Source: Candidatus Omnitrophota bacterium
Lineage (GTDB): Bacteria; Omnitrophota; Gorgyraeia; Gygaellales; Profunditerraquicolaceae
NCBI GenBank assembly: GCA_025453445.1
Contig: JALOQJ010000002.1
Span: forward strand, 6,249 to 70,248
Direction of reading: 5' to 3'
Length of the DNA: 64,000 nt
Made by a program: the position numbers and the translations under genes. The notes under the pieces are model-generated. The model was not told the origin of the DNA. It did no database searches and saw only the letters and a list, made by a program, of their open reading frames with translations. The first letter of the stretch is position 1; each line of letters starts with the position of its first letter. Below, piece by piece: positions 49,901 through 64,000 of the stretch.

Positions 49901-52900
49901 GAGGTTTAAACCTCCGCTACATGCGGCAGAGGCGAATGAAGGCAGTAGCGTTGCGCCGATTACCAAACCAAAGCAAGCTACGCCCAGCATTGTGCAAACT
50001 TCGCTGATGCCTTTTTTGCCGCCGCCCCTGTCCGGGCCAGCGCCGGGATTTTGTTGTGTGAATTGTAAAGGCTCAAAAGATTCGGAACGCGGGTCATATT
50101 TTGTTATTTTATTATCGCAGTAATGAAAAAAGGTGGGGAAGTTCCCAAGCGGGAAAGATATCTCCGTTCTTTGCTTTGAGGTAAATTGAGCTAAGTCGTA
50201 TTCTTCAGAAGCAAATACCATAATAAACGACTTATCTCCTCTGGCTCCAGACGTCTGGTAAGTCCCCCTCAATAAACCCAAAGCGCCTAAAGCTTTTTCC
50301 TGCGTGTATGAATCTTTTATAAACGGATAATAGCCAAATACAAAAATTTGCTTATATTTTTCTGTTAATAATTCTGAAAAGTAATAAGGGCGTTGTTTTA
50401 TTAAATCGGCAAAGTTAATAACAAGGGTTTCTTGAGCATCATACCCTTCCTTTATTTTCTCTATATAAAGTTTGGCTACCTCATCAGGGACTCCAGAAAT
50501 GAAAACTGGCATTACATCTGAAATGGCCTTTTGGAAATCAGCGCATTTATGTAAGGCTAATTCTAATTTTTCAGCACTGCTTGACGAAGCGCCCCCGCCC
50601 GCGCCTCCGTCAATATTGTTATTTTGGGACACTTCTGGCATAACAAGGCTTTTAGCATTAGATTTAGTCTTAGGCCAAACTAATCCTATTTCATAGAATA
50701 GTTTTTTCAACTGAGAAGGCATATTCCTTAGAAGATATTTATATCCATTTATTGCGTTCGTAATTTCCAAACTCTCTGTTCCGATTATTTCAAAAGCTAA
50801 TTCTCCAGAGAAAAACTTTGAAATAAATTCTTTAAGTGCATTTTGTGGAGTATCAACTACAGACGATCCGAAAGTAACGCTGAAATATGCCAAAGAAAAT
50901 TTCTGATTTTTATTATTAAGCGCTTGTGTTTGATCTACTAATTGCCTAAATAAATCTTCATGATCTTGAGATGCTAATTCAATATAATCATGCAAAAGCT
51001 CATGACGGATATTTGGTTCTGTAGTTTCTTTCGGAACAACTACTACCCGCTCAAGATGTTTATTGAACTTACCATCAAAATATTCAAATACTCGTAAATA
51101 AAATTCTCTAATCTTTGGTTTATTAGAATTCTCTACACAATGCCTATTCAAATATACGCCCTTAGCCCAGAAAGCGTCCGGAGTATATTTTGATGCTATC
51201 TCCATAATATCCCTGAAGGATTCATCATCCGAAATCACCTCAACGCCCGGGATTATAAATCCATCCCTAATAATTCCCTTGGGGAGAATTGGGGACGTTT
51301 CTATTTTTCCGCCTTGTCGCATTTCCCTATCTTCCGGAATATGCTGAAATAACCGCCTGCCCCCGAACAAATCAAGTAACTTCTGCGACGGATAGACATC
51401 GCCCATTCCCCGCGGCTGGATAGGATTCTTATCTGGCCAACGCATATCAACATAATGCGGATTGCCCTTTTGAAACCCTTTCCCGCCCGCGCCGCCGCCG
51501 CGCGGAAATAGGCCTTCCGCCATTATCGCTGCGAATAATTTTGAGGTTTCAATTGCTGTCTCCAAAATAGAATCTCTGATATACTCTGCGTCCCTGCGGT
51601 ATGTATACACTGACAGGCCGAGTTTCTGCATAATTTCCCTTAACTCTTTCTTAAATTTCGGCCTTTCGCTTAATGACTGGAAACGCCAAAGGTATGCCCG
51701 AAGCAGATAATGGTACGGCGTCTCTGCGTAAGCATTATATATATTCGGACCACGCGTGGCCTTATCGCATACTTGAATTATATGCTCCGCATCCGAGTGG
51801 AAAGCCGATTTTCTTACTGCCGCTATTTTTTGATAAACACGCATCCAGCTCAATACTGCAATTTCGTCCTCTGTAATTTTAGGGATAACAACTTGGCCAA
51901 ATAGGACTTTCGTATCATGCGGTTTCATATACGCGCTTAAACTACCCTTAATATATTCGGGCGCAATATCCACAGGCACAAGATGTATATGAATAGGAAG
52001 ACCCTTGTATTCAAGAGGCACTCGCCATAAGGTTAAACTTCCGTAGGCCTTTCTCATATCTTCTACAACAACATAAGTGTCGTAATCATTAAAAGTATCA
52101 TTTTCCCCAGCGTAAACAGCTGAACCGTATGCGATTATTGCCTGTAAATTTGTTGCGCCAAATAAATCTATAATAGATTGTGTATAACCAAATTTTTTCT
52201 GCTCTTCTGTACTCAATTCTGCCCGGCGGGCTAAAGCAGCTACTCTTGCGCTTCCCGGAAATAACGCCTTCAAATAATCTATTAATTTAAGTTTTATTTC
52301 CATAAGCGCTTCTCTGGGAGAGAAAGAAGAGATATCCAGAAGCTCATCTTTCTCTATTTTTCCTTCAGTTATCAGTAAATTTCTTATTTTTAGATATTTC
52401 TCATATTTCTCCTGCGCCCGGGCTTTGTTAATTTCTTTTTCGTGTATTATCTCATCATCTAGTGGCCCAATTATCCTGTTTATCCCATTTTGTAAATCAA
52501 GTAACTCAAAATCAACCAAAGGTATTCCCGCAACCTCTGCTCCCATCAAACCTGTGGTTGTCCCACTACCTAAGATTTCTTCTGCTTCTCTATAATGAGA
52601 CCGGTCAAAATACCTTAACCACTTTAGCTCATCCACGGACCAAACTGTAAGTTCTATGTCCTTGGGCAACTGCTGCAATTGCGCATCTACAAAAGCCCAC
52701 GTCAAAGGCCCATTGACGATTATGCATTTATGCGTTACATTCTCTATTTTCTTTTTACCTTGCGCTAGTATAGAAACATCTGTATCAACTGGTATTTTAA
52801 GATTAATTGGAAGACTGTCTTTGTGCCGAGCCGAGCTAGTGACCCCACCCCCGCCCGCGGCGCGGACACCATCTTGAGCGTGCGCCGGGCTGCCGGCGGT

Positions 52901-55900
52901 TTCGCCCCTGCCTCTTTTCTTGCCTAACGCCCCCATATTCCTATGATGCGCTAACCGAAAATCAAGGATATTCCCCCCTAAAGGAAATTCCCTGCCCATT
53001 AGCTCAGGCCAAGTTATTCCATCAAATCCGCCTAGCGATGGAATATCCTTATAATGCATATCCTGATTTATCCTGTCCCTATTGCCACCAGCACCGCCGC
53101 CAGATACCAGATATTCTAGCGTTAAAGAATATACTGCGTGATTTTCGATACTTATACAGCCACCGACAAACTTAATAATAAAAGGAGCGGACTCTTGAAT
53201 CGTTTCTTCGGTATACCCCCTGGCCTCAACTGGATTAAAGCTAACCCCATCTTCTCCTTTTAATATATCCCTAACAAATAATTTCTCTTCATGTCCGTCA
53301 AAATCTAAAATCTCAACATCTACTTCTTGCTTACCAGCGCAACTATGGAACCAAAATTCAAAATGCCTATTTTCACCTGAAAGCTGCTTCTCCACTGGGC
53401 CTTCTTCTACGATAATGCGCGATATAAGTCGATACGGAACTATTGCTACATCAAGCGTTTTATTAACATAAGGCCGGATTTCTCGCTTCTGAAAGAAATG
53501 AGAACAATCTTCTATCGCTTCATAATCCTGTCTTATTTTACCAAGGCCAATTTTTTGTTCTTTATATGAACGCTTAAATTTTAAGACGTTTATAATATAG
53601 TAAATAGCCGCGACCGCCCAAAACAATACAAGCGTAGAAGCTACGCCAAGCCCAGAAGCAGCTTTCCTATCATCTAAAACAAAATAAAATAATATACCCG
53701 GGCAACTTAAAGTCGCGATACTGACTAAGTAAACTACCCAGCGAAAGGATACCCTGCGTTCTTTTTCAGCTTTATATATTGAAGCTATCTTGTCTTGGCA
53801 TAAACGCAGCTTATTCCCAACGCGAATTTTCTGAAAGTGCCGCTCTATTTTTCCGCTAGGATATGGTTGTTTGTTCTCTAGTGCGCCAGAACTATGATGT
53901 TTTATATTGAAAGCTCGAATACTACTTTGAGGATATTCATTGGGATTGTAACCTGGCATATCACAAGAGACTGCGGATAATTTATTTTTAGCATCAAGAA
54001 AATATAAAATCGCTATGACGAGTAAAATAATTACGATGACCTCCGGTGGAGCAAAACTGAAGATACATTCTTTAATCTGCGCCAAGGCGCCGGAGTTATC
54101 CACATCGTAGCGGAGGTTTAAACCTCCGCTACATGCGGCAGAGGCAAATGAAGGCAGGATTGTTGCGCCGATTACAAGAGCAAAACAAATTAAACCCAAC
54201 ATTGTGCAAACTTCGCCGATGCCTTTTTTGGCGCCCCCGCCCGCGCCGCCCCTTTTATTTTTGGTCCCAGTTGATTTCTGCAAAATATCGTATTTGTTCA
54301 ACATGGCTACCATACAATTTAGGATTTCGTTCGCAAAAACCTTGGATTGCTGATAAACCATATAAGAAGAGGACCTGCATATAAAGACGGCACTGAACCT
54401 AAAGGAAAGACCTTGTAATATTTGCATGAAATTCTGGATTTCTTCTTCAAACCGATAGGCCGGCATCTCATTGAAAGCATCCAAATCAAGGCTTAATACG
54501 TATTGCCCATTATCCTGAGGCCATATCAGCGCGTTTAACCCATTCTCAGGAACAATATTAAATGTCATGTTTGCTGTTTTTCGTATTCTTTTCACAGGGC
54601 TGTCGTAGGAAACTAAATAATATCCTTTTGCCGTTTTTGCATCGAAGGGAATTCCAACCCCGGGTCCTCTCGGCCCTCTATGTGTACTGACGTGTTCTTC
54701 ATAAGCAACTTTCAAAACCGGTGAGGATTTATTAAAATAAACAAATCTACCAAACAGCGATCTTAGGCTTGGTATCCAGAATAATTCGCTCAAGTCGTTT
54801 TCTCTGACCAGTGCGGTAAAAATACCGCCTTCATGCATTGTCTTTTCGGCATAGCGCATGACTGTCTCAAGCGACGGACGCAACGGTATTCCCGTTTTAT
54901 AATCCGGCATCACTGTTGCCCCGGTATCATCATGAAAATCATTGTTTAAAACGATCAACCTGTTCCCGAGTTTATTTTGCCGCTGCAGTATTTTCACAAC
55001 CGGAAGCAAAAGCTGATGATCTTCCGCGACATACAGAGGAACATTTTGTGCGCCTGAAACTGTTATTTGGAATAACCCGCCTCCCGGATAATCGAACCGA
55101 CCATCTTGTTGCGCGGCAATGAGTTTAACCGTGTCACCTTCTATCTTAATTTCAGCGGCTTTTTGGCATCGCATAACGGCATATTTTTTCTTCCAAACAA
55201 GAAGCCGTTGCCATTTTTCAAGAAGATATTGTCGATACCATCTTCGATCATTATCATTTTTGATAGTGATGGCGTATTGTAATTTTTTAACCAATACTTC
55301 CTTCGAAAGTCCTGTCTCGTTAAAAACACTTACCATCTGCTTAATAGCAGCATCCTGATCGTTTTTATGACACAAAATCTCATTAAGCAATTCCTGCATC
55401 CTTTTTTCCTGCTCGCCCTTGTTGGATGTCCATCTTTGATCTTCATTAATTGAAGTTATGCGTTCCAGATAATGTTTTTTTCCTTCTTTAAGCAAATGCT
55501 TCTCGCGCCGAACTGCCTCCGGTGAATGAAAGCGGCTGCTGTTCTTTATTTCCTGTTCAACAATCTGTAAAATTTGCCTGTGCCATTCAGGATGATATTT
55601 TTCTGATACCGGTATTTCGTCATGGTGTCGGGCAGTGTTCCGATCTCCGGCGTGATATCCTTCTTCTTCCAGGATAACAGCTAACGTCTCTACGCTTAAC
55701 ACTTCAAACAACTGGCGTGTCATATATATATTTTCTTCCAAACGCCCTGCGGTTCCGGCATGGGCCAAAACATATTCATCGCCATCCTTGATGATATAAT
55801 ACGGATGCATTTCATCTCCCTCCAAAAGCACAAGATTGTGCCTCTCCATAAAGGGCGGGTATGTTCTTGTCATTAAATTCTCAATAGCTGCCAATTTTAA

Positions 55901-58900
55901 CAAAATCGATTCAGGCGTTCCTTTTGGTAAGAAGACTAGATGCAGGTCCGTTATTTTGATAGTGTTCTTAAGTCCAATTTGGTCTGCAATAAATTTATTA
56001 ATACGGTCATGGAAGGCAGGGGTGTACGTCCCTTGAGTTCCTAAATTATTGGGCGAACTTTGTATAATAATGGGGACGGTTCTATTTTTTGCCCGCCAGA
56101 GGAATGTGGCAACTCCCACAAGGGAAAATAATGCGAGGATAGGCAATAGGTATGAAGAGAAAGCGGCTGTCTGCATTTCCTGTCCCGGCGGGGCGAGTGA
56201 GAAAATACATTCCCTAACCTGCCCCAAGAAGGCGCCAAAGTTATCCACATCGTAGCGGAGGTTTAAACCTCCGCTACATACGGCAGAGGCAATCGAAGGC
56301 AGGATTGTTGCGCCGATCGACGCGCCAAGGCAAGCTACGCCCAGCATTGTGCAAACTTCGCCGAGGCCTTTTTCTTTCCCGCCCGCGTTGCCGGCTTGAG
56401 CAACCTCTCTGATATCTTCATCGGTTCTTCTCCTAAAGGAAAAATATTCGAAACTATCCCGAATTACTAATAATTTTTTACTCAGTATTACAAAATCATT
56501 CATTACAGAATTAGTGAAAAAACTCTTTGGTACTTGGTTCCTTATCGTATTCAGTTTTGCTATCGAGCCTTCGCCTTTTGTTTCGACTTTAGGCTTAGCG
56601 TAAAATGTCTCAATATTTTCTTTGCTAGAGAAAATAGCCATTAATTCAGGTTGCCCTGTCAATAGTCGCACAAGTTCCTCAGATTCTGCTTTTAATGCAA
56701 TTAGTTGTTTCCTCTGAGATTTTCCTTTACGATATCCACTAAAAATGTCTTGAAGCGAACATTCAAGAGAAAGTAACTTATTCTCTAAATCGTGCAAGTA
56801 AATATATTCTCTAATAACTTTTTGGGCTTCGTAAGATAGCAATTGGCCTTCTATCTTCTTATTAAAATAAGTTTCAAAAAGCCGATTTTCCATTACAGAA
56901 ATACAGTTATTACAATACGACTGATAGGCATCAAAAGCCTGAAGTAAATCAATCCGTAATAATATATATTCGAGGGCTGCGGGTTCCTTATCTTGAAAAT
57001 ATTTTCTGATTTGATTATAAGCCTGTAGCCTATTCGCTAAATCAAATGGCTGTTCTGTGTTTTGCCTGACTTCGTTCATTACAAGATTCTTTAGTTTCTG
57101 CGGCAGACCGCATTTCCATGCAACCGGCACTTGTTCGGGGATATTTTTAATTTCTATTATTTTCATAATTGCTTGTTTAAAAACTTTTAACCTGCTTCCG
57201 CTCCCTCGCGGCCCTAGGTTACTTTTATAAAACCTCCAGCCCATAAAGCCGCTTCTCCCAAAAGGAAACGCCAACTCCATCGGGTCAAAACTCCTTAGCA
57301 GGTCGCCTTTCGCTGAGAATAACGAACTGTCATTATAACGAACACCGGGGCCTATTTTGCCACCCCCGCCCGCGCCGTTGGCCCGCGAACCGATCAAAGA
57401 GTCATCAGAATAGCCCACCCCATAGAGCGTACAGCCCTTCCAGGGTGCGAAGTCACCCTCTTCTTTCCGATCATCCAGCTCCACGTAATACCGGCGGGAA
57501 CCCTTAGGATCCTCTACCAGATAAACACTTTCCTCAAAACGTTTTGTCTCTGTTGCATCCATCACGGCGAAAAGGGCCTCCCGGATGATGGATGCGGGCA
57601 AAAATGGTGCCGCGTATCCTTTCACAACCACGGCCATGGCTGTGTCGAGATGGCGCAAAAATACTATAGCCCGTTCAGAAGACATTCTCCGGATAATCTC
57701 CAAAATCGCGTCATTCCTTTCTACCTCCGGAGCCAACTCGGCAATCAGTTTCTGCGCAGCCGCGTTACGAAGAACTTCATCCGGACGCGTAATCATCCGC
57801 GTCATGCTCATGATTTGCCTGTTATCAATACTATCGACCTTCATACATTTTTCGATATTCGGCATCTGCTCTTCGAGCCAATCCCGGGGCCAATAAAATC
57901 TCGGAGGAACTGCCAGCCCTTCCCGGAGAAAATCGCGCTGCAGTATCCTTAACTTTTTACCCGCCTCTTCCCGAGCATAACCCATTGCCTGAAGGCGGGC
58001 ATGGATCAATGGCAAATAATACCAAAACATGTTGAAAGCAGTCGTCTCACTTTCGTAAAGATACTTTCCCGCTTCCAAAGCTTCGACGGGATTAATACCT
58101 TCCAAGAAAGAAAGCATAGCCTCGCGGCTCTTTCGTCCGGCCAAAAGCGCGGCAACCGGTGAGGCAATGCAGTGATGCATTAACAAATCCCGCCCCTTTT
58201 CCTTTATAATCAAACCTTTAATTCCAACTAAAACATCGTCAGAGAGAAGAAGAGCCAGACGCAAGTCTCGATCATCAAGGTCAGCGCGATGAACGTCCGC
58301 CAATAAAGACGCGATCTTAGCTTCAGAGAGAATCTTCCGGGCCCGCTCTTCCATCCCGGACAACGACAGCCGCGAGAGAAATGCCGGACGTAAGACGCCC
58401 CAAGGATAGGAACTCTCAGGGAACCCTACCAATTCCACTAATGCAGGATACTGCTGCGCGTAATTAACAACTCCAATCTTTCCGTTTTGTACGGCCCTTC
58501 CAATAATATTATCCACTTCCACTGTAGTCAGATGGCTTGGAACTACCTGCAAGAGATCCCTAGTCAGCTTCTCCAGAGAATCCGCTCGCCCGACGGCGTC
58601 CTCTAACAGTACCAATCCTAAAGAACTCCATCCCGCGCATGTAAGAATCTCCTTAACACTAAAATTATGGTCGCAGAGAAATACATCATTAGGATAAATA
58701 TGATGCGCCTCATGATTGATAATCTGCCACATTAACTCTCCAATGTCATAGAGATGCTCCGTATTAAGGAAGGACGCCCGATAAAGAGGAAGGAATGACG
58801 CGCGATAAAGAAGCTTGAAAAGATGCGCCGGTAGAAGGGCTTCACCCTGAGCGGGCAGGGCAGCGGCCACGATGAATTTATTAGGGCCTTCGTAAGCCAG

Positions 58901-61900
58901 ATACATGTCGCGGGCATCCGGCTCTCTGCCCGAAGGATAATAAAACCGGTATCGTGTCCGGTGCATACTTTCAATTTCTTTCTTCGCATACTCCGGGTTA
59001 GAATAATGATGCTTACGGACATACTGTTCGACCATAGAAAAAATATTCGCAAGCTCGGGATCGCTGGACGCTTCGACAAAACGGCCCGTCTTTAAAAGAC
59101 CTTCGATTGTCCAATTCAATTCCTCTCTGCCATACCCGCGTGAAATGCCTTCGGCGCCCTGATCGCCGCCCCCGCCCGCGCCGCCGTCATCTATAGGCTG
59201 CATCAGGCTGCCTAAATTGACATCTGAATCATTCTTTCCTACTCCTATTGGCTGTAATAATATCGAGCGAGGCTGTCTAAATACGCAGGCATAAGCAAAC
59301 TGAACAGGATTAAAATGGTTTAAATAATAACCGACGAGCAACAATATGATGATACCAATTTCTACTTGACTTAGGGGCAAGCATAGTATATTCTTAAATG
59401 AAGGGAGGAAATATATGCATAAGAAACAATATATGGTGATTATTGAAAGGGACGAGGACGGTATGCTGGTAGGTACTGTTCCCAGCCTGAAAGGGTGCCA
59501 TAGCCAAGCTAAGAATATGCCAACTTTACTTGAACGAATTAAAGAGGCGATCCAGCTCTGCTTAGAGGTAGAAAATCCTAAAATTCCGTCTTTAGAATTT
59601 GTCGGGCTGCAAGAAGTTGAAGTTAATTGATGTCGAGGCTCACTCCCCTTAGGCCAACCGAAGCCATCCGCATTTTGACCCACTTGGGTTTTGAACGTAT
59701 CCGCCAAAAAGGCAGCCACATTTATTTTCGCCATCCTGACGGCCGCTCTACGGTAGTACCTTTTCACAAAGGCGAAGACTTGAGCAAAGGCCTTTTGAGC
59801 GCAATCCTTAGGGATATTGAGTTGCCGTGGGACGAATTTATTGCCGCTAAGTGAGTTCCTACAAACCCTGCAAGCCACCCAAATAAAAATCGTAACAGGT
59901 AAAATTAAAATCGCCGGATAAGCGAGCCTGTAAATATACTCTCCAACTTGCCCCAAGGCGCCGAAGTTATCCACATTGTAGCGGAGGTTTAAACCTCCGC
60001 TACATGCGGCAGAGGCAAATAAAGGCAGGATTGTTACGCCGATTACAAGAGCAAAACAAATTAAACCCAACATTGTGCAAACTTCGCCGATGCCTTTTTT
60101 GGCGCCCCCGCCCGAATTCTTTAACATTGGTCCCACGGCGCTATCTTTGACGAATCTTTCAAAATATCTAGTGAAATCAAAAATTCCTGATTTTGAAAGC
60201 GCTTCGGTAATACTGGTTTTAAAAATATTCCCTACTACCGCATATTTATTTCCCTTGGGAATCATAATATCTCCGCGAAAATCTACAAGAACACAGGTAC
60301 TTCTTTCGTCTGATTTTAGGCATGCTATTTTTAATCTACCAACGTATGGCAAATTAAAAAGACTCTGGGTAACTTCCTGAAAATCCTGGTCGCTGACAAA
60401 ATAGTCATTTGCAATAGCAGAAGTCGCTACTCTCCCAGCAGTAACATATTGCCTTATGCCCCACTCGGCGACACCCGCATCGGCAAGCTGTCGACCCAAC
60501 AAAGGCAAATCAGCTATATTCTTTTTTGTAGCCACAGTAGATACAGCTAATACAAATTTACGCCTGATTAATCTTGAGAATAGTTTCCAAACATTTCTGT
60601 ATTGCGCCCTAGATCTCTCTCCTCTTACAGCAACGTGGACATCTTCAGTAGAGCCTTCTATTGGGATAGACAATGTATCAAGATAAAGTTCAAGTTTATC
60701 AATTATATTTTCATCTAACAGATCACCAGAAATCTGCAGACAAACTAAAATTCTCTGCTCATAAATATATTTTATTATTTCAATAATATCGGGGATCAAC
60801 AAAGCGTCTCCTCCGGTGATAACCATAGACCTGATCCCTTGTTCCTTTAATTTATCTATAATGCGCTTTGCTTCTTCAAAAGTAATTTCTCTTTTGGAGC
60901 ACGAAGCTTTTCTCCGGAAACAAATCGGACAGTTCACTTCACAGGAATCAGTGGCATAAAATGCTATATGAATAATTTTCGGATTCTGTTGGTGCAGTTT
61001 TCCTATCTGCCCCCCGCCCGCGCCGCGGAGGTTTTTGTCAAACACTGGTCTGCTGTAGCCGGAAAGCAACTTGACATTTATCGTTGGAGGTGGTATGGTT
61101 ATATTGTGAGGTGAAAAACTATGAATAAAAATGCCCGGGAAGCCAAAAAACATTTGCAAAGACTGCGCAAACTTACTGCCAACACTCCATCCCCTTTCAA
61201 AGGGATGACTCTTGAAGAGGCAATCACGAAGATGCGAAAAGTTAGGGAACAGTTGTGGGAGGAAAAGCTTGCATTTCGTCCTTGATACAAATGAATTTGT
61301 GGGCGCGATAGGGTTAGTCAGGAACCCACCTTCGGAAATCCTTTTTAATATTCTCATAGAATCATCACCGCGGCATACCATCCATGTCCCCCGGCTGATA
61401 ATTAACGAAGTAAAACGCAATATTCCTCCTAATATTTTCACGGAATTCATAAAGATTGTCATACCGATTGTTATTATTGACGAAGATATCTTTGTGCCTT
61501 TTGAGATAGGCATAAAATATGAATCTGCCGGCCTAAAACCCGCGGACGCATTTATCGCCGCATACGCCGAATGGACGGGCGCTGAAGTATTAGCGACTGA
61601 AAACAGGCATTTTCTCTCCCGGCAAACCAATCTTCCTTTTAAGGTCATGAATGCCGAACACTGTCTTAAAATTTTAGGCAAATAATACCAAACCTTACCA
61701 ATCTTTCTTGACATCCACCATATTCCCTTTATTAGCTTATACACCGGCCCGGTAGGAAAATTGTAGAGAACAGACCCGCCCCCGCCCGCGCCGCCGCGTG
61801 GAGTTTTACTCTGCAATGCTTCATAAACATCAATCGCCTTTATGCCTAATTCTTTCCCTGCCTGAAAATCAGTAAACCTTCCGTTTATAACACTCATCCC

Positions 61901-63970
61901 TTCTGCGAATCCTGCGTCCCTATAAACAGCTCCTTCTGTTCCATACAACATCAAAAGCTCCAAATAAGGAAGCATCGCTATTTCAAGCATGGTTGAAGCC
62001 AAATGAGCAATTTTACCCGGTTGAGCAGGCATATTTGGTATCAAGTAGAAAATCGACTCTCCATAACCGACTCTTACCGGTTTATCATAAGAAGTTACTT
62101 TTTCATCTAACCCAACAACCACAGTTTTATCCGGCCTGACAAATTCAAAATTTCCACCGGCGTTAATCGCTACATCCACAAATACGCGGCGCTTGGGAGA
62201 TCTATCACTTATTTCTATAATTAATTCTTTATTGATGGTAACGGGCGCTTTCCTGCCGGGAAGTGATGCCGCTCCGACAACTGCGTCAGCCTTTATCAGG
62301 GCATCTTTTATCTTCCGCTGCTGGGAATCCGAGAGAACCTCTAATCTGCCGCTAGCTATTTCTTCCCTAAATATCTCCCGGATATCATCCAAGTTTTCGG
62401 ATAGATCAGTAAGCGTAACCGTAGCGCCCAAGAAAAACGCTGCTCCACAGGCAGCCAAACCAACGGTGCCTGCTCCGGTAATCAACAGGTGTTTTCCTTT
62501 AAGGTTTTCATCATCCAGAGAATAACTATAATGCATAATGTTAATGTGTAAAATCCCTTCCCTGCGCTTAACATCCCCTATAACATCACTGCCGGAAACT
62601 CTCTCTTCGTTCTCATTCAGATAAATCAACGCCTGAAAAACTGCCTCAATACCGGAAACAATATTCATTGCGTCTAAACAGACGCGGGTTTTCCCCTTGC
62701 GCACTTTTATTCGGCTGATCCAGTGAGGAATAATATTAAGCCCCCAAGAATCCATAAAATTTGGATTAAATAATAAGCAGGTATGCGCGTCTGCCTCAAT
62801 TTCCTCTAAGGCAAGGCAGCTTACTTTTGACTTGAGGATCTTTTCAGTCATCTCTTTATCAGAAGCAAAATTAAAATAACTAGCCAGGATTTTACCTGCC
62901 CCAAGATAGGCTAATTCATTATCCATAGGTGCATTGACTTTTAAAATTATAACTTCTTTGCCCTCTTCAACTGCTCCTTCTCCTATCTTATCCAACTGTT
63001 CCCTGTCTGCTGCTATTTTCGCTCCGAGCCTTTCATAATAATCATCATTTATCCCGCTTAAGGATCCGGCCTTAGACTCAACATAAATTTCCAATTTGAT
63101 ATTTTTTTCTTTAGCAAATTTCAGAAGTTTATCCACAGCAAGAGACAGCCCGACCCTTCCTTCATTAGGCCTAATTTCCCGCGGCACAAGAATTACTGTG
63201 CCGGTTTTTTTAACAGTTTCAAAAGTGGGTACGAGTAATTTACGGCTACCGGAAGAAATCAATCTTTCTAACTGGCTGGGGGTGCCGTCTTTCTTTTTTG
63301 TCACTATTGCGCCAAGTGTCCTGCATTCCTCAATTATTCTAAGAAGAGTTCGAAGGCAAGCCTCAGGCAAATCTTTCCGCGAAACATCCTGTGCAGTAAC
63401 AAAAGATTCTCGCCGCCATAAATGCGCACCATACGTCCCAGCTACTTTAAAAAGCCCCTGCAAATTTTCTCCTAGTATAGAGATAACTTCTCGGTTAAGA
63501 TGGTTGCCGGCAATACAAAAAAGAATATCCCACTGAATCTTGCCAACAGGAGCGGGTAATCTTAATACATGAAAGCCCCATCCCGTCTCATTATTAAATG
63601 GCGCTAAGGCTTCTAAAATCGGCCTTAAGAATTCCGCTTCTTCTAATGAAGGCGCTTTGCCAATTGAAAGCAAGTGCGGACGGCCGGTAGAATCAAGCCC
63701 GGTTACTACCGGGTCATCAGCTGCTATACAAATAGATATACCGGATATATTTGAAGGCCCTTCCTTTGCCACCAACTGGCCCGGAGCATCTACTTTCACT
63801 ATAGCTTTACCCGGTGGGCCTGCCGGCTTGCCCGCGCCCGCGCTGGCGGGATTTTCCCGCGCCGAGCTGTTTGAGGTTTCGGAATTAGCCGGCTCCGGTA
63901 GTAAACACTGTTGTGTATCTCCTAATAGATCTTCATCCTTTATAATATCGATATGGTCAAAATCTATCAT
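46913..63970 (-). CDS. giant 5,685-codon open reading frame. A modular polyprotein-like fusion of ~13 unrelated cassettes joined by GGAGGG-encoding GC-rich motifs. The N-terminus is still open at the window edge.
   Basis: No stop codon for 17,058 nt on the minus strand, and the frame remains open to nt 64000. Module order N-to-C (higher to lower coordinates): unknown N-terminal region + AlaDH/PNT-like Rossmann domain (LLITGAGTVGLAACG); antisense of the PIN toxin-antitoxin cassette; radical SAM domain (CEVNCPIC, GGDALL); TM-anchor repeat; antisense of the hicBA cassette; unknown; unknown; TM repeat; unknown; TM repeat + extra TMs; mini-module; NTase-like (GS...DYD); HExxH (HELLH); unknown; TM repeat + HEAT repeats + Pro/Gln-rich tail. 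Whether it is translated as one product is not established. Confidence 0.5.
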   Translation of the reverse strand: MIDFDHIDIIKDEDLLGDTQQCLLPEPANSETSNSSARENPASAGAGKPAGPPGKAIVKVDAPGQLVAKEGPSNISGISICIAADDPVVTGLDSTGRPHLLSIGKAPSLEEAEFLRPILEALAPFNNETGWGFHVLRLPAPVGKIQWDILFCIAGNHLNREVISILGENLQGLFKVAGTYGAHLWRRESFVTAQDVSRKDLPEACLRTLLRIIEECRTLGAIVTKKKDGTPSQLERLISSGSRKLLVPTFETVKKTGTVILVPREIRPNEGRVGLSLAVDKLLKFAKEKNIKLEIYVESKAGSLSGINDDYYERLGAKIAADREQLDKIGEGAVEEGKEVIILKVNAPMDNELAYLGAGKILASYFNFASDKEMTEKILKSKVSCLALEEIEADAHTCLLFNPNFMDSWGLNIIPHWISRIKVRKGKTRVCLDAMNIVSGIEAVFQALIYLNENEERVSGSDVIGDVKRREGILHINIMHYSYSLDDENLKGKHLLITGAGTVGLAACGAAFFLGATVTLTDLSENLDDIREIFREEIASGRLEVLSDSQQRKIKDALIKADAVVGAASLPGRKAPVTINKELIIEISDRSPKRRVFVDVAINAGGNFEFVRPDKTVVVGLDEKVTSYDKPVRVGYGESIFYLIPNMPAQPGKIAHLASTMLEIAMLPYLELLMLYGTEGAVYRDAGFAEGMSVINGRFTDFQAGKELGIKAIDVYEALQSKTPRGGAGGGGSVLYNFPTGPVYKLIKGIWWMSRKIGKVWYYLPKILRQCSAFMTLKGRLVCRERKCLFSVANTSAPVHSAYAAINASAGFRPADSYFMPISKGTKISSSIITIGMTIFMNSVKILGGILRFTSLIISRGTWMVCRGDDSMRILKRISEGGFLTNPIAPTNSFVSRTKCKLFLPQLFPNFSHLRDCLFKSHPFERGWSVGSKFAQSLQMFFGFPGIFIHSFSPHNITIPPPTINVKLLSGYSRPVFDKNLRGAGGGQIGKLHQQNPKIIHIAFYATDSCEVNCPICFRRKASCSKREITFEEAKRIIDKLKEQGIRSMVITGGDALLIPDIIEIIKYIYEQRILVCLQISGDLLDENIIDKLELYLDTLSIPIEGSTEDVHVAVRGERSRAQYRNVWKLFSRLIRRKFVLAVSTVATKKNIADLPLLGRQLADAGVAEWGIRQYVTAGRVATSAIANDYFVSDQDFQEVTQSLFNLPYVGRLKIACLKSDERSTCVLVDFRGDIMIPKGNKYAVVGNIFKTSITEALSKSGIFDFTRYFERFVKDSAVGPMLKNSGGGAKKGIGEVCTMLGLICFALVIGVTILPLFASAACSGGLNLRYNVDNFGALGQVGEYIYRLAYPAILILPVTIFIWVACRVCRNSLSGNKFVPRQLNIPKDCAQKAFAQVFAFVKRYYRRAAVRMAKINVAAFLADTFKTQVGQNADGFGWPKGSEPRHQLTSTSCSPTNSKDGILGFSTSKQSWIASLIRSSKVGIFLAWLWHPFRLGTVPTSIPSSSLSIITIYCFLCIYFLPSFKNILCLPLSQVEIGIIILLLVGYYLNHFNPVQFAYACVFRQPRSILLQPIGVGKNDSDVNLGSLMQPIDDGGAGGGGDQGAEGISRGYGREELNWTIEGLLKTGRFVEASSDPELANIFSMVEQYVRKHHYSNPEYAKKEIESMHRTRYRFYYPSGREPDARDMYLAYEGPNKFIVAAALPAQGEALLPAHLFKLLYRASFLPLYRASFLNTEHLYDIGELMWQIINHEAHHIYPNDVFLCDHNFSVKEILTCAGWSSLGLVLLEDAVGRADSLEKLTRDLLQVVPSHLTTVEVDNIIGRAVQNGKIGVVNYAQQYPALVELVGFPESSYPWGVLRPAFLSRLSLSGMEERARKILSEAKIASLLADVHRADLDDRDLRLALLLSDDVLVGIKGLIIKEKGRDLLMHHCIASPVAALLAGRKSREAMLSFLEGINPVEALEAGKYLYESETTAFNMFWYYLPLIHARLQAMGYAREEAGKKLRILQRDFLREGLAVPPRFYWPRDWLEEQMPNIEKCMKVDSIDNRQIMSMTRMITRPDEVLRNAAAQKLIAELAPEVERNDAILEIIRRMSSERAIVFLRHLDTAMAVVVKGYAAPFLPASIIREALFAVMDATETKRFEESVYLVEDPKGSRRYYVELDDRKEEGDFAPWKGCTLYGVGYSDDSLIGSRANGAGGGGKIGPGVRYNDSSLFSAKGDLLRSFDPMELAFPFGRSGFMGWRFYKSNLGPRGSGSRLKVFKQAIMKIIEIKNIPEQVPVAWKCGLPQKLKNLVMNEVRQNTEQPFDLANRLQAYNQIRKYFQDKEPAALEYILLRIDLLQAFDAYQSYCNNCISVMENRLFETYFNKKIEGQLLSYEAQKVIREYIYLHDLENKLLSLECSLQDIFSGYRKGKSQRKQLIALKAESEELVRLLTGQPELMAIFSSKENIETFYAKPKVETKGEGSIAKLNTIRNQVPKSFFTNSVMNDFVILSKKLLVIRDSFEYFSFRRRTDEDIREVAQAGNAGGKEKGLGEVCTMLGVACLGASIGATILPSIASAVCSGGLNLRYDVDNFGAFLGQVRECIFSLAPPGQEMQTAAFSSYLLPILALFSLVGVATFLWRAKNRTVPIIIQSSPNNLGTQGTYTPAFHDRINKFIADQIGLKNTIKITDLHLVFLPKGTPESILLKLAAIENLMTRTYPPFMERHNLVLLEGDEMHPYYIIKDGDEYVLAHAGTAGRLEENIYMTRQLFEVLSVETLAVILEEEGYHAGDRNTARHHDEIPVSEKYHPEWHRQILQIVEQEIKNSSRFHSPEAVRREKHLLKEGKKHYLERITSINEDQRWTSNKGEQEKRMQELLNEILCHKNDQDAAIKQMVSVFNETGLSKEVLVKKLQYAITIKNDNDRRWYRQYLLEKWQRLLVWKKKYAVMRCQKAAEIKIEGDTVKLIAAQQDGRFDYPGGGLFQITVSGAQNVPLYVAEDHQLLLPVVKILQRQNKLGNRLIVLNNDFHDDTGATVMPDYKTGIPLRPSLETVMRYAEKTMHEGGIFTALVRENDLSELFWIPSLRSLFGRFVYFNKSSPVLKVAYEEHVSTHRGPRGPGVGIPFDAKTAKGYYLVSYDSPVKRIRKTANMTFNIVPENGLNALIWPQDNGQYVLSLDLDAFNEMPAYRFEEEIQNFMQILQGLSFRFSAVFICRSSSYMVYQQSKVFANEILNCMVAMLNKYDILQKSTGTKNKRGGAGGGAKKGIGEVCTMLGLICFALVIGATILPSFASAACSGGLNLRYDVDNSGALAQIKECIFSFAPPEVIVIILLVIAILYFLDAKNKLSAVSCDMPGYNPNEYPQSSIRAFNIKHHSSGALENKQPYPSGKIERHFQKIRVGNKLRLCQDKIASIYKAEKERRVSFRWVVYLVSIATLSCPGILFYFVLDDRKAASGLGVASTLVLFWAVAAIYYIINVLKFKRSYKEQKIGLGKIRQDYEAIEDCSHFFQKREIRPYVNKTLDVAIVPYRLISRIIVEEGPVEKQLSGENRHFEFWFHSCAGKQEVDVEILDFDGHEEKLFVRDILKGEDGVSFNPVEARGYTEETIQESAPFIIKFVGGCISIENHAVYSLTLEYLVSGGGAGGNRDRINQDMHYKDIPSLGGFDGITWPELMGREFPLGGNILDFRLAHHRNMGALGKKRGRGETAGSPAHAQDGVRAAGGGGVTSSARHKDSLPINLKIPVDTDVSILAQGKKKIENVTHKCIIVNGPLTWAFVDAQLQQLPKDIELTVWSVDELKWLRYFDRSHYREAEEILGSGTTTGLMGAEVAGIPLVDFELLDLQNGINRIIGPLDDEIIHEKEINKARAQEKYEKYLKIRNLLITEGKIEKDELLDISSFSPREALMEIKLKLIDYLKALFPGSARVAALARRAELSTEEQKKFGYTQSIIDLFGATNLQAIIAYGSAVYAGENDTFNDYDTYVVVEDMRKAYGSLTLWRVPLEYKGLPIHIHLVPVDIAPEYIKGSLSAYMKPHDTKVLFGQVVIPKITEDEIAVLSWMRVYQKIAAVRKSAFHSDAEHIIQVCDKATRGPNIYNAYAETPYHYLLRAYLWRFQSLSERPKFKKELREIMQKLGLSVYTYRRDAEYIRDSILETAIETSKLFAAIMAEGLFPRGGGAGGKGFQKGNPHYVDMRWPDKNPIQPRGMGDVYPSQKLLDLFGGRRLFQHIPEDREMRQGGKIETSPILPKGIIRDGFIIPGVEVISDDESFRDIMEIASKYTPDAFWAKGVYLNRHCVENSNKPKIREFYLRVFEYFDGKFNKHLERVVVVPKETTEPNIRHELLHDYIELASQDHEDLFRQLVDQTQALNNKNQKFSLAYFSVTFGSSVVDTPQNALKEFISKFFSGELAFEIIGTESLEITNAINGYKYLLRNMPSQLKKLFYEIGLVWPKTKSNAKSLVMPEVSQNNNIDGGAGGGASSSSAEKLELALHKCADFQKAISDVMPVFISGVPDEVAKLYIEKIKEGYDAQETLVINFADLIKQRPYYFSELLTEKYKQIFVFGYYPFIKDSYTQEKALGALGLLRGTYQTSGARGDKSFIMVFASEEYDLAQFTSKQRTEISFPLGNFPTFFHYCDNKITKYDPRSESFEPLQFTQQNPGAGPDRGGGKKGISEVCTMLGVACFGLVIGATLLPSFASAACSGGLNLRYNVDNFGALGQVGECIFSLAPPIILIIFSICPWLFSGISQVWPALQLVANKVIKLFRFTQKGVIIALIIGFISTTGGCMHDIDYENLPIAKAKNSKTQTYSNEYIRFIGFSLEDALESRRLAEVNISKGNYMAAFSKYCLIYQYYPEIFPSSNAFDERAKQGLVDYQTSLGFNTYNPVFLDPQGSFYEKIGITKDDLIQGYLRALKNDDFKISFYAAMNLGLAGNPAGRDILITGLRGQYKISNPGFLSFALSQEEIVKQKVQYKLPIYANNYSRDSKDKIQKYVSIYAALALAELGEPECIDQLITILSDAKNYNSEMRVYVASRLGQFSEVKVTDALMKSAYDSDEKLSCVSIWALGNMDDSRTFELFVSFLNSKNQNIVNEAITALGKLGDVRAVSHLKDVLQQPGIEKETKTRIAVALAQIGGKEVLDVLVGMAKDPDVEVRSVVIYGLADFNEPQAKEIIIGALDDPEPAVRQAALLPVPGWFKENPVVFDKAFQKLSDPSPDVSSTAAGILSGHIGDYPRLEEPISRMLKERELNTQLGILSGLSQSSCPKAIEMGRPFLSSSAPELQIAAMRVTNSRVGIDPAISDSFLRLARQGPTPMVQATATIYLDKIKSPEIINIVENNFRSNNSLLRQSAIDVAGKIDSPKMMPILSAGLHDNFVGIRQSSALSLGGRLPGNPDLTKTFAQSLKQEQDPFTKHVFASALRNLPDRAGFIGEDLIQNSLIPNTRISGWSMKELSRPNMGVEIGYSPIIAGQDHTFISVTYNNFTKTIDFNPKDKNISKLIATEGIYNSVDKKILDGLVIYRTLTVDPIATKQVFDNIANYRGKIESYNMFNIPGLGKNCYSGRNSFLKDIGINTPITDLPWQPLVPNMAFSRSMSGAISDPYFNYSFKMQQKISYPDLSTRTRETQIWTHYETHPFSQPMYISMPRVDFQQLRFQQPVFQTPNFYSPPMKFDLPKFQPMTMPKYQPMPQIQLPKYQPPPNFGR
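49850..50046 (-). repeat. TM-anchor/linker repeat copy 4 (~190 bp), containing a 26-bp perfect palindrome at 49895-49920 and a degenerate linker motif at 50018-50046
   Basis: Encodes GAGPDRGGGKKGISEVCTMLGVACFGLVIGATLLPSFASAACSGGLNLRYNVDNFGALGQVGECIFSLAPP. More than 85% nucleotide identity to copies 1-3. Confidence 0.85.
50591..50607 (-). repeat. linker motif copy (CCCCCGCCCGCGCCTCC), encodes DGGAGGGAS
   Basis: GC island in AT-rich DNA. Same orientation and frame as the other copies. Confidence 0.8.
51482..51505 (-). repeat. linker motif copy (CCCGCCCGCGCCGCCGCCGCGCGG), encodes PRGGGAGGKG
   Basis: As above. Confidence 0.8.
52848..52865 (-). repeat. linker motif copy (CCCCCGCCCGCGGCGCGG), encodes RAAGGGGV
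   Basis: As above. Confidence 0.8.
53086..53104 (-). repeat. degenerate linker motif copy (CCACCAGCACCGCCGCCAG), encodes SGGGAGGN
   Basis: The protein-level linker is conserved while the DNA is more diverged. It bounds a ~70-aa mini-module between this copy and the one at 52848. Confidence 0.6.
54063..54252 (-). repeat. TM-anchor/linker repeat copy 3, containing a palindrome at 54106-54131 and a full linker motif at 54234-54252
   Basis: Encodes KRGGAGGGAKKGIGEVCTMLGLICFALVIGATILPSFASAACSGGLNLRYDVDNSGALAQIKECIFSFAPP. Confidence 0.85.
56205..56386 (-). repeat. TM-anchor/linker repeat copy 2, containing a palindrome at 56252-56277 and a partial motif at 56377-56386
   Basis: Encodes AGNAGGKEKGLGEVCTMLGVACLGASIGATILPSIASAVCSGGLNLRYDVDNFGAFLGQVRECIFSLAPP. 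Confidence 0.85.
57363..57377 (-). repeat. linker motif copy (CCCCCGCCCGCGCCG), encodes ANGAGGGGK
   Basis: As above. Confidence 0.8.
59169..59185 (-). repeat. linker motif copy (CCCCCGCCCGCGCCGCC), encodes DDGGAGGGGDQ
   Basis: As above. Forms the boundary of the inverted hicBA cassette. Confidence 0.8.
59415..59630 (+). CDS. hicB: HicB-family antitoxin (UPF0150)
   Basis: MHKKQYMVIIERDEDGMLVGTVPSLKGCHSQAKNMPTLLERIKEAIQLCLE is the canonical HicB N-domain. GAAGGGAGG RBS and a TTGACT-type promoter upstream. Encoded antisense within the giant ORF. Confidence 0.8.
   Translation: MHKKQYMVIIERDEDGMLVGTVPSLKGCHSQAKNMPTLLERIKEAIQLCLEVENPKIPSLEFVGLQEVEVN
59627..59854 (+). CDS. hicA: HicA-family mRNA interferase toxin
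   Basis: LTHLGFERIRQKGSHIYFRHPDGRSTVVPFHKGEDLSKGLLSAILRDIEL is the YcfA/HicA fold signature. 4-nt overlap with hicB. Confidence 0.8.
   Translation: MMSRLTPLRPTEAIRILTHLGFERIRQKGSHIYFRHPDGRSTVVPFHKGEDLSKGLLSAILRDIELPWDEFIAAK
59932..60114 (-). repeat. TM-anchor/linker repeat copy 1, containing a palindrome at 59978-60003. The linker motif is truncated after CCCCCGCCCG, followed by GAATTC, at 60105-60114.
   Basis: Encodes NSGGGAKKGIGEVCTMLGLICFALVIGVTILPLFASAACSGGLNLRYNVDNFGALGQVGE, then runs into the antisense of hicA. Confidence 0.85.
61021..61036 (-). repeat. linker motif copy (CCCCCGCCCGCGCCGC), encodes LRGAGGGQIG. The radical SAM module begins immediately after it.
   Basis: As above. Confidence 0.8.
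61120..61286 (+). CDS. small putative antitoxin partner of the PIN toxin
   Basis: ATG preceded by GAGGTG RBS. A TTGACA-17-TATGGT promoter lies ~40 nt upstream. 54 aa, basic and helical (MNKNAREAKKHLQRLRKL...). The stop overlaps the PIN ORF. Antitoxin role inferred from gene order only. Confidence 0.45.
61267..61685 (+). CDS. vapC: PIN-domain toxin (VapC-like)
   Basis: HFVLDTNEFV ... IDEDIF ... ADAFIAAYAEWTGAEVLATENRHF are the PIN acidic-residue motifs. The track ORF starts at 61212 (TTG), but a start near LHFVLD is more likely. Antisense within the giant ORF. Confidence 0.75.
61779..61796 (-). repeat. linker motif copy (CCCCCGCCCGCGCCGCCG), encodes PRGGAGGGGSV
   Basis: As above. Forms the boundary between the AlaDH-like module and the inverted PIN cassette. 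Confidence 0.8.
63831..63850 (-). repeat. degenerate linker motif copy (CCCGCGCCCGCGCTGGCGGG), encodes SAGAGKPAGP
   Basis: The N-most copy, ~40 codons into the track ORF. Confidence 0.5.
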
Positions 63971-64000
63971 AGAAAAACCATCAAGGTCCTTCCTGTTTAT

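Follow-up and report, generated by a model that had tools for sequence, protein, structure and literature searches.

A hicBA toxin-antitoxin operon encoded antisense within a stop-free giant open reading frame of Candidatus Omnitrophota

How can a giant open reading frame (ORF) run without interruption through a complete operon on the opposite strand, and what would hold the two together? The question is raised by a 64,000-nt stretch of DNA from a Candidatus Omnitrophota bacterium (assembly GCA_025453445.1, contig JALOQJ010000002.1, positions 6,249–70,248 of the forward strand), hereafter the window, in which a multi-module minus-strand ORF reads straight across a plus-strand hicB-hicA toxin-antitoxin (TA) pair. 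The codon usage of hicA, at this locus and in related species, indicates that the giant frame is actively kept open across the pair. The elements of the locus that carry this conclusion are as follows.

46913–64000, minus strand: giant multi-module ORF, partial; open past the window end, with its stop codon at 46913–46915
59186–59365, minus strand: linker-to-promoter stretch, stop-free in the giant frame and not conserved between species
59366–59394, plus strand: predicted hicBA promoter, with a -35 element TTGACT (59366–59371), a 17-nt spacer and a -10 element TATTCT (59389–59394)
59400–59408, plus strand: ribosome-binding site (RBS) GAAGGGAGG, 6 nt 5' of the hicB ATG
59415–59630, plus strand: hicB antitoxin gene, 71 aa, short type, offset by one base relative to the giant frame
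59630–59854, plus strand: hicA toxin gene, 74 aa from the ATG, codon-aligned in antisense with the giant frame and devoid of TTA, CTA and TCA

HicA matches the Pfam family HicA_toxin (PF07927) with 72.2 bits (E = 3.9e-20), its closest solved structure is PDB 1WHZ (1.4e-13), and Gly28, Ser29 and His30 of the G-S-H catalytic region are invariant among 32 homologues. HicB scores barely above the threshold for HicB_lk_antitox (PF15919/UPF0150 fold; 27.4 bits with a cut-off of 27), and its closest solved structure is PDB 2YZT (6.2e-10). A hicB partner was found in 34 nested cassettes (see below), always paired with hicA. A comparison of the four TA proteins with NCBIfam gave no useful match. The ATG of hicA shares one base with the TGA of hicB; the TTG at 59627, from which a first-pass annotation of this DNA had started hicA, lies in the same frame as the ATG at 59630. 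From the promoter to the hicA stop codon, the operon spans ∼0.5 kb. Most of the 34 upstream regions examined have the promoter pattern (CTTGACTT, ∼17 nt, TAnnAT) at a constant distance from hicB; a few of the most divergent ones have no clear -35 element. An AGGAGG-type RBS is kept upstream of hicB across the clade, and the surrounding DNA is not conserved.

Canonical long HicB proteins carry a C-terminal ribbon-helix-helix (RHH) or helix-turn-helix (HTH) DNA-binding domain for autorepression. Pfam detects no such domain in the 71-residue HicB. Since short HicB proteins exist, as exemplified by 2YZT, the missing domain excludes the canonical long subtype and not the HicB family. The family and structure matches, together with the signals upstream, uphold the earlier description of a complete plus-strand pair with promoter-like -35/-10 elements and an RBS, and we read the adjacent, co-oriented genes as one intact type II TA operon with a predicted promoter and RBS of its own.

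Across the slot that holds this cassette (59186–59934), the giant frame has no stop codon, compared with 16 and 15 in the other two minus-strand frames. In a codon-aligned antisense register, a stop requires TTA, CTA or TCA as the sense codon, and each of the three has synonyms. As the giant frame is codon-aligned with hicA, only these codons in hicA could create a stop. The first-pass annotation had counted 10 Leu and 5 Ser codons in hicA, none of them TTA, CTA or TCA, and had observed that neighbouring genes use TTA and TCA freely, hicB itself containing three TTA codons. Our counts agree (9 Leu codons if the TTG at 59627 is left out), as does the codon usage of 37 other genes in the window, in which CTA makes up 3.4% of Leu codons and TCA 17.7% of Ser codons. 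The same usage contradicts the possibility, raised at the time, that the three codons are generally rare, since TTA is the commonest Leu codon (31.7%). The probability of a hicA free of antisense stops, a calculation that had been proposed earlier, is 0.0075 when synonymous codons are resampled at window usage; the corresponding value for hicB is 0.145. Shuffling of the flanks gave 0.006 for the 229-nt upstream stretch (59186–59414) and 0.25 for the downstream stretch, and the joint chance of an open giant frame across the hicBA cassette is ∼2e-6.

In the offset register of hicB, antisense stops arise only across codon boundaries (NNT/TAN, NNC/TAN and NNT/CAN), and most can be avoided by a change at the third position of the codon before. 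The remaining antisense register would constrain amino acids; across the clade it is full of stops (181–227). The plus-strand stop codons of hicB and hicA themselves appear as Ser or Leu on the opposite strand. Thus, inverted orientation lets an independent gene, complete with its own stop codons, sit within a continuous ORF.

The arrangement is not confined to this genome. One genome per species was scanned with a HicA alignment, resulting in 80 loci. HicA homologues are numerous, and those that are named come nearly all from Candidatus Omnitrophota metagenome-assembled genomes (MAGs). TTA, CTA and TCA are absent from hicA in all 37 of the closest loci (∼59% identity or more), and in 32 of these hicBA lies antisense in an aligned open frame of 737 to >6,738 codons, which often reaches the end of the fetched DNA. 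The three codons are missing from the nested hicA genes of 31 other loci just as they are from that of the window. Summed over 33 nested hicA genes, TTA/CTA account for 0 of 255 Leu codons and TCA for 0 of 132 Ser codons. The 34 adjacent hicB genes, in contrast, use TTA/CTA for 118 of 351 Leu codons and TCA for 10 of 113 Ser codons. In the register that hicB presents to the giant frame, there are 10 stops over all hicB genes, compared with 101 for the same register in hicA. HicA homologues of Chloroflexota, Clostridia, Elusimicrobia, archaea and other groups contain 1–5 antisense-stop codons, with the exception of GC-rich hicA genes (≥57%) and one locus (L065). A comparison with hicA homologues, also proposed earlier, thus finds that the codon avoidance recurs in nested relatives, mostly labelled Omnitrophota. 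The suggestion that the arrangement might reflect design can be set aside, as it is found in independent public assemblies of many species.

Two of these loci illustrate the scale of the host frames: a 4,876-aa ORF (L022) and a 2,744-aa ORF (L016), each holding hicB (9786–10001) and hicA (10001–10225) on the opposite strand, carry cytidine deaminase, sigma-70 r3/r4, GNAT, HEAT and HTH domains. JGI contigs L011–L014 represent an independent nested case with a HicA 84% identical; here, a sigma-70-like (r4) HTH, a DnaJ domain and a transmembrane (TM) segment precede the cassette, and 529 residues follow it. A natural control is provided by L004 (GCA_041643075.1), in which the 17,550-aa aligned-frame ORF terminates shortly beyond the stop codon of hicA, a gene that here has three antisense-stop codons. 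A separate 399-aa minus-strand ORF lies beyond hicB in another frame. This region (8508–10232 of L004) looks like a giant gene that formerly continued through the cassette and was later split there.

Comparison between species also distinguishes the two partners. HicA is 69% identical in amino acid sequence, with a dN/dS of ∼0.12 for hicA. Third positions are only 41% identical and, hence, the Leu and Ser codons have been resampled many times. The antisense read-through peptide of hicA is 37% identical with a pseudo-dN/dS of 1.27, values that rule out a conserved third protein antisense to hicA. As HicA is conserved and the antisense peptide is not, the TA proteins are the conserved partner, and the giant frame is kept open without its sequence being kept. 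Both frames, as judged from these substitution patterns, appear to be under selection: purifying selection on HicA and selection against stops in the giant frame. The earlier claim that the inverted cassette is held free of giant-frame stops by selection is, therefore, borne out by the 33 nested hicA genes, the hicB control and L004.

The DNA similarity to the loci of other species is limited to window positions 59403–59862, that is, to the cassette. The flanking giant-gene modules have no homology between species, at the protein or DNA level, outside hicBA and, as a consequence, an orthologous site free of the cassette could not be located. Loci L030 and L034, on two contigs of one MAG, share a 596-nt unit that spans the promoter region, hicBA and ∼50 nt beyond and is 96% identical within unrelated flanks; the cassette is, therefore, duplicated or moved as a self-contained unit. 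A search of viral contigs for the HicA clade returned a single 59% match and, hence, no sign of a phage vector. Most close HicA homologues sit on very short contigs (0.5–3 kb), which fits assemblies breaking at cassette-flanking repeats and annotation dropping hicBA inside intact giant ORFs.

The giant ORF had been assigned a start at the ATG at 63970; however, it does not start there, and its frame is open to the window end (63971–64000). Its modules, as recognized by Pfam, comprise AlaDH/PNT, radical SAM and C-terminal HEAT repeats, accompanied by four copies of a ∼200-nt hydrophobic (predicted transmembrane) repeat. JGI contig Ga0392394_0000319 has a gene call of 9,533 aa (28.6 kb), itself probably truncated where the contig ends, and ∼11.5 kb of this gene extend beyond the window; published sets of Omnitrophota giant ORFs are defined by lengths of >20 kb or ≥10,000 aa. 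The locus sequence is 100% identical in the Logan assembly of SRR12684589 and 99.995% identical in that of JGI, and these two further assemblies show that it is not an assembly oddity. The only record of the HicB of this locus comes from a short contig with a truncated giant ORF. With the 735-aa AlaDH-containing N-terminal module as query, a metagenome scan returned one unrelated 30% match, and a protein homologue search returned no significant match among 8,000 candidates. A PilZ protein and a PD40 beta-propeller are encoded immediately downstream of the giant gene. Further away on the minus strand (window region 25670–29776/29703–33095), a 1,368-aa protein with GGDEF, AAA ATPase and HEAT-repeat domains adjoins two tandem PilB-type ATPases and other type IV pilus genes (PilM, secretin, PilC).

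The cassette slot is defined by repeated sequences within the giant ORF:

59165–59185, minus strand: linker GGAGGGG, with the DNA motif GGCGCGGGCGGGGG at 59169–59182; marks the C-terminal edge of the cassette slot with respect to the giant frame
50588–50608, 51482–51499, 52844–52861, 54230–54250, 57359–57376, 59165–59185, 61010–61024 and 61775–61795: Gly/Ala linkers
59914–60114, minus strand: TM repeat copy 1, adjoining the cassette on its N-terminal side in the giant frame, with a perfect palindrome at 59977–60004
49894–49921, 54107–54133, 56252–56278 and 59977–60004: palindrome (T)GTAGCGGAGGTTTAAACCTCCGCTAC(A), 26–28 nt, perfectly conserved in all four TM repeats

Both boundaries given in the first-pass annotation, a copy of the linker motif and TM repeat copy 1, are present. 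The motif GGCGCGGGCGGGGG occurs in seven copies at ≤1 mismatch, all inside the giant ORF, and in 10 matches within the window at ≤2 mismatches, compared with 0.23 expected by chance; it also forms the first part of the TM repeat. The linkers reuse the same codons (GGC GCG GGC GGG GG) in a genome of 41% GC and, thus, are conserved as DNA and not only as peptide. This conservation suggests concerted evolution, a role in recombination or, possibly, double-glycine protease sites. The start-to-start spacings of the TM repeats (4212, 2145 and 3726 nt) are all multiples of three. The palindrome is perfectly conserved, whereas the rest of the TM repeat is only 68–91% identical from copy to copy. Read in the giant frame, the palindrome gives CSGGLNLRY; it pairs GGAGG with CCTCC and looks like a DNA- or RNA-level element (a protein-binding site or hairpin) within coding sequence. 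An Rfam scan of 58500–62500 gave no match. Neither GGCGCGGGCGGGGG nor the 26-nt palindrome was found in the other species examined, and both are, thus, lineage-specific. Linkers in other lineages consist of SSSPV in L021 and L023, of a ∼34-aa repeat in L031, and of S-x-SGE...FSGKDVFENEPGD in L020, where a DUF433/DUF5615 pair lies between two copies. TA cassettes occupy slots between lineage-specific repeated linkers. An invertible segment was also considered and rejected, as the flanking 13-nt and 18-nt inverted pairs are at chance level, estimated by hand.

A further slot of the same giant ORF holds a second cassette:

61025–61774, plus strand: second antisense TA cassette, exactly 750 nt between the linkers at 61010–61024 and 61775–61795
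61121–61285, plus strand: putative antitoxin ORF of the second cassette, codon-aligned with the giant frame and free of TTA, CTA and TCA
61212–61685, plus strand: PIN toxin ORF of the second cassette (Pfam PIN, 1.2e-5)

The giant frame has no stops across 61025–61774, compared with 18 and 14 in the other minus-strand frames (chance ∼1e-4), and homologues of this PIN protein are also nested in L024 and L054. In a census of nested genes, the 145 longest antisense ORFs (≥105 aa) in giant frames were scanned with Pfam. All of the matches were TA-type (PIN/PIN_3/PIN_10, DUF5615/Mut7-C, DUF433, PemK/MazF, HicA/HicB and retropepsin-like), and a shorter nested ORF matches DUF2283. At least four further TA families, as assigned by these matches, are nested antisense in Omnitrophota giant genes in the manner of hicBA. 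Directly downstream of hicBA in L022 are a DUF2283-family ORF (10235–10450, plus strand) and a second small ORF (10374–10595, plus strand); these are also inside the 4,876-aa antisense frame, so TA cassettes can be side by side.

Why, then, should a TA operon and a giant gene be kept together? We consider it probable that an intact hicBA operon, inverted inside a translated giant gene, forms with it a mutual lock-in that amounts to a deletion-resistant addiction module. Independent transcription of hicBA and translation through the cassette are both predicted. The repeated linkers between modules would invite in-frame deletions by recombination, and, because the direct repeats are in frame, such deletions could leave the giant ORF intact. 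A TA operon would be the one kind of gene able to survive in such a place, being small and self-promoted, and its loss would kill or arrest the cell. The inverted orientation would retain the TA stop codons without breaking the giant frame, and the giant ORF would gain a spacer of ∼250 residues, free to drift and obliged to stay open. Once in place, the cassette could not be removed without risk to the giant gene, and segments of the giant gene could not be deleted without loss of the antitoxin. Self-promoted TA cassettes stabilise chromosomal integron arrays (PMC13108822), and this precedent, together with the repeats, favours mutual lock-in. The stabilising role itself is one that we infer by analogy. 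Only tentatively would we extend the proposal to Omnitrophota giant ORFs in general, as recombining arrays of modules, set apart by lineage-specific linker repeats, in which at least five type II TA families act as frame-neutral antisense cassettes (∼0.6–0.75 kb) that move from one module slot to another and guard against deletion, like integron TA cassettes set inside a translated frame. If this were true, large stretches of these record-length "proteins" would consist of read-through spacers without selected sequence, and the giant products would probably be processed at linkers, in the manner of a polyprotein.

Several observations weigh against the lock-in proposal. Translation of the giant frame across the cassette is deduced only from the absence of stops, and the toxicity of HicA is assumed from its family membership. 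With a short HicB that has no DNA-binding domain, autoregulation and, hence, classic post-segregational behaviour are uncertain. At five of the 37 closest loci (L017, L026, L035, L038 and L048), the stop-free antisense frame extends over only 119–303 codons, so nesting is not obligatory; these may be recently un-nested cassettes or broken giant genes. Some of the MAGs carry the taxon labels Planctomycetia or "uncultured bacterium". Finally, a stabilising or addictive role is computationally inseparable from a purely selfish "safe harbour".

Such a selfish refuge is the strongest competing explanation, one to which we give a real but minor share of probability. Cassettes would persist because imprecise deletion destroys a strongly selected giant gene, without any benefit to the host, and only frame-neutral antisense variants would last. 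The movement or duplication of the cassette as a discrete unit between unrelated flanks agrees with this explanation, as do the restriction of the nested genes to TA families, the lack of conservation of the read-through peptide, and the variation of flanking modules between species. However, the sequence evidence is identical to that for a stabiliser, and either explanation accommodates retention across >30 species and the presence of several cassettes in one gene.

A regulatory device is, in our view, unlikely. The convergent hicBA promoter might tune the giant gene, by interference or antisense RNA, or transcription of the giant gene might silence hicBA and free HicA, coupling growth arrest to production of the giant protein. 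A near-consensus promoter is indeed kept inside the ORF, the orientation is always convergent, and a short HicB without a DNA-binding domain means that control could come from elsewhere. Nevertheless, several unrelated TA families are embedded alike, for which a property shared by TA modules is the simpler explanation.

It is very improbable that the giant frame is untranslated across the cassette, with the region comprising two or more genes and an open frame that is incidental. Gene callers do split the region on short contigs, where a 1,015-aa gene ends before hicB. Against this stand the chance values for an open frame given above for the hicBA and PIN cassettes, the repetition of the pattern in 32 loci, and L004, in which the giant ORF ends at the cassette and hicA has antisense stops. 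We know of no force other than translation that would remove stops from one frame only.

Equally improbable, in our judgement, is an integron-like array, assembled through site-specific recombination and carrying its TA cassette in inverted orientation in the manner of Vibrio superintegrons. The attC sites of integrons are imperfect inverted repeats of ∼60–140 nt. Nothing resembling them was found at the cassette boundaries, which are 14–21-nt GC-rich direct repeats encoding Gly/Ala, or Ser-rich linkers in other lineages, and inverted repeats are at chance level. A scan of the 30 largest window ORFs other than the giant gene, the 5' end of which is beyond the window, revealed no integrase or recombinase; the ORFs scanned include Pst and sugar ABC transport, GidA, ribonucleotide reductase, type IV pilus proteins, PilZ and PD40. 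Nor are the modules separate promoterless genes on a common Pc promoter, as they are fused in a single open frame of >17 kb. What speaks for an integron is that repeated boundary sequences flank the module slots and that the TA cassettes are self-promoted, as is typical of chromosomal integrons (PMC13108822). The parallel with integrons drawn in the first-pass annotation thus stands as an apt analogy, that of self-promoted TA cassettes in a repeat-bounded array, and fails as a mechanism, given the lack of attC and integrase and the single reading frame.

A decaying hicBA relic captured by the giant ORF, to which we attach hardly any weight, is refuted by both ORFs being intact in 33–34 nested cassettes, by the purifying selection on hicA, by the invariant G-S-H motif, and by the conserved promoter, RBS and overlapping stop/start. 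The weakest explanation, that TTA, CTA and TCA are simply rare by chance or general codon bias, could appeal to the 45.5% GC of the 59–60-kb segment compared with ∼41% for the window overall, and is refuted, to the point of near certainty, by the window usage, the free use of these codons in hicB of the window and clade, the 15–16 stops in the other minus-strand frames, and the resampling.

Several consequences follow from the codon evidence and its recurrence. The locus is possibly the clearest natural case of long antisense overlapping coding in bacteria, as both partners are identifiable and the constraint is legible in codon usage, with more than 30 evolutionary replicates and, in L004, a natural control for loss of the constraint. 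It bears on whether giant ORFs are translated end to end and whether all of the product is functional protein: the codon patterns argue that ribosomes read through the giant ORF and that some segments need only stay open. Because annotation pipelines retain the giant ORF and discard whatever is nested within it, TA operons are missed. TA modules, already regarded as stabilisers of repetitive arrays, would act as such in a new setting, and, for engineering, the arrangement supplies a rule drawn from nature by which an independent gene can be concealed within another ORF.

The nearest genomic context is that of the giant multi-enzyme ORFs of Omnitrophota (bioRxiv 10.1101/2023.11.21.568195; bioRxiv 10.64898/2026.06.07.730766; PMC10066038), which likewise contain many unrelated Pfam domains and repeated TM segments and are poorly conserved between species. 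West-Roberts et al. (2023), Nielsen & Lui (2026) and Seymour et al. (2023), the main literature on these genes, treat the whole giant ORF as protein (bioRxiv 10.1101/2023.11.21.568195; bioRxiv 10.64898/2026.06.07.730766; PMC10066038) and contain no mention of antisense, nested or HicA genes. A full-text literature search returned only general work on overlapping genes and integrons, and an antisense TA operon in a giant ORF with selected two-strand coding is, apparently, unreported.

Among individual systems, the short HicAB of Thermus thermophilus (1WHZ, HicA-like, and 2YZT, HicB-like) provides the best structure matches and likewise has an antitoxin of ∼70 aa without a DNA-binding domain. 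The genomic setting differs, as we know of no overlap between the Thermus hicAB genes and another ORF. The TA cassettes of the Vibrio cholerae superintegron (PMC13108822, PMC11023631) are also small, self-promoted type II TA operons among promoterless, repeat-bounded units, and their proposed role, preventing loss of the array, is that proposed here for hicBA. In contrast to integrons, no integrase, attI or attC was found here, the repeats encode peptide linkers, and the array is one continuous frame, so that a cassette must be free of stops in antisense. Finally, pop/ompA in enterohaemorrhagic Escherichia coli (EHEC; PMC7103648) and long antisense genes in Pseudomonas aeruginosa (PMC8850804) resemble hicBA in being complete genes antisense inside an ORF, with hundreds of bases kept open. 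In those cases, the embedded gene is young, taxonomically restricted and overprinted on an old gene (PMC7103648, PMC8850804). In Omnitrophota the relationship is reversed: the embedded genes belong to old, known families under strong purifying selection (dN/dS 0.12), the host frame is the unconstrained partner, and the overlap has left a clean codon signature in more than 30 species.

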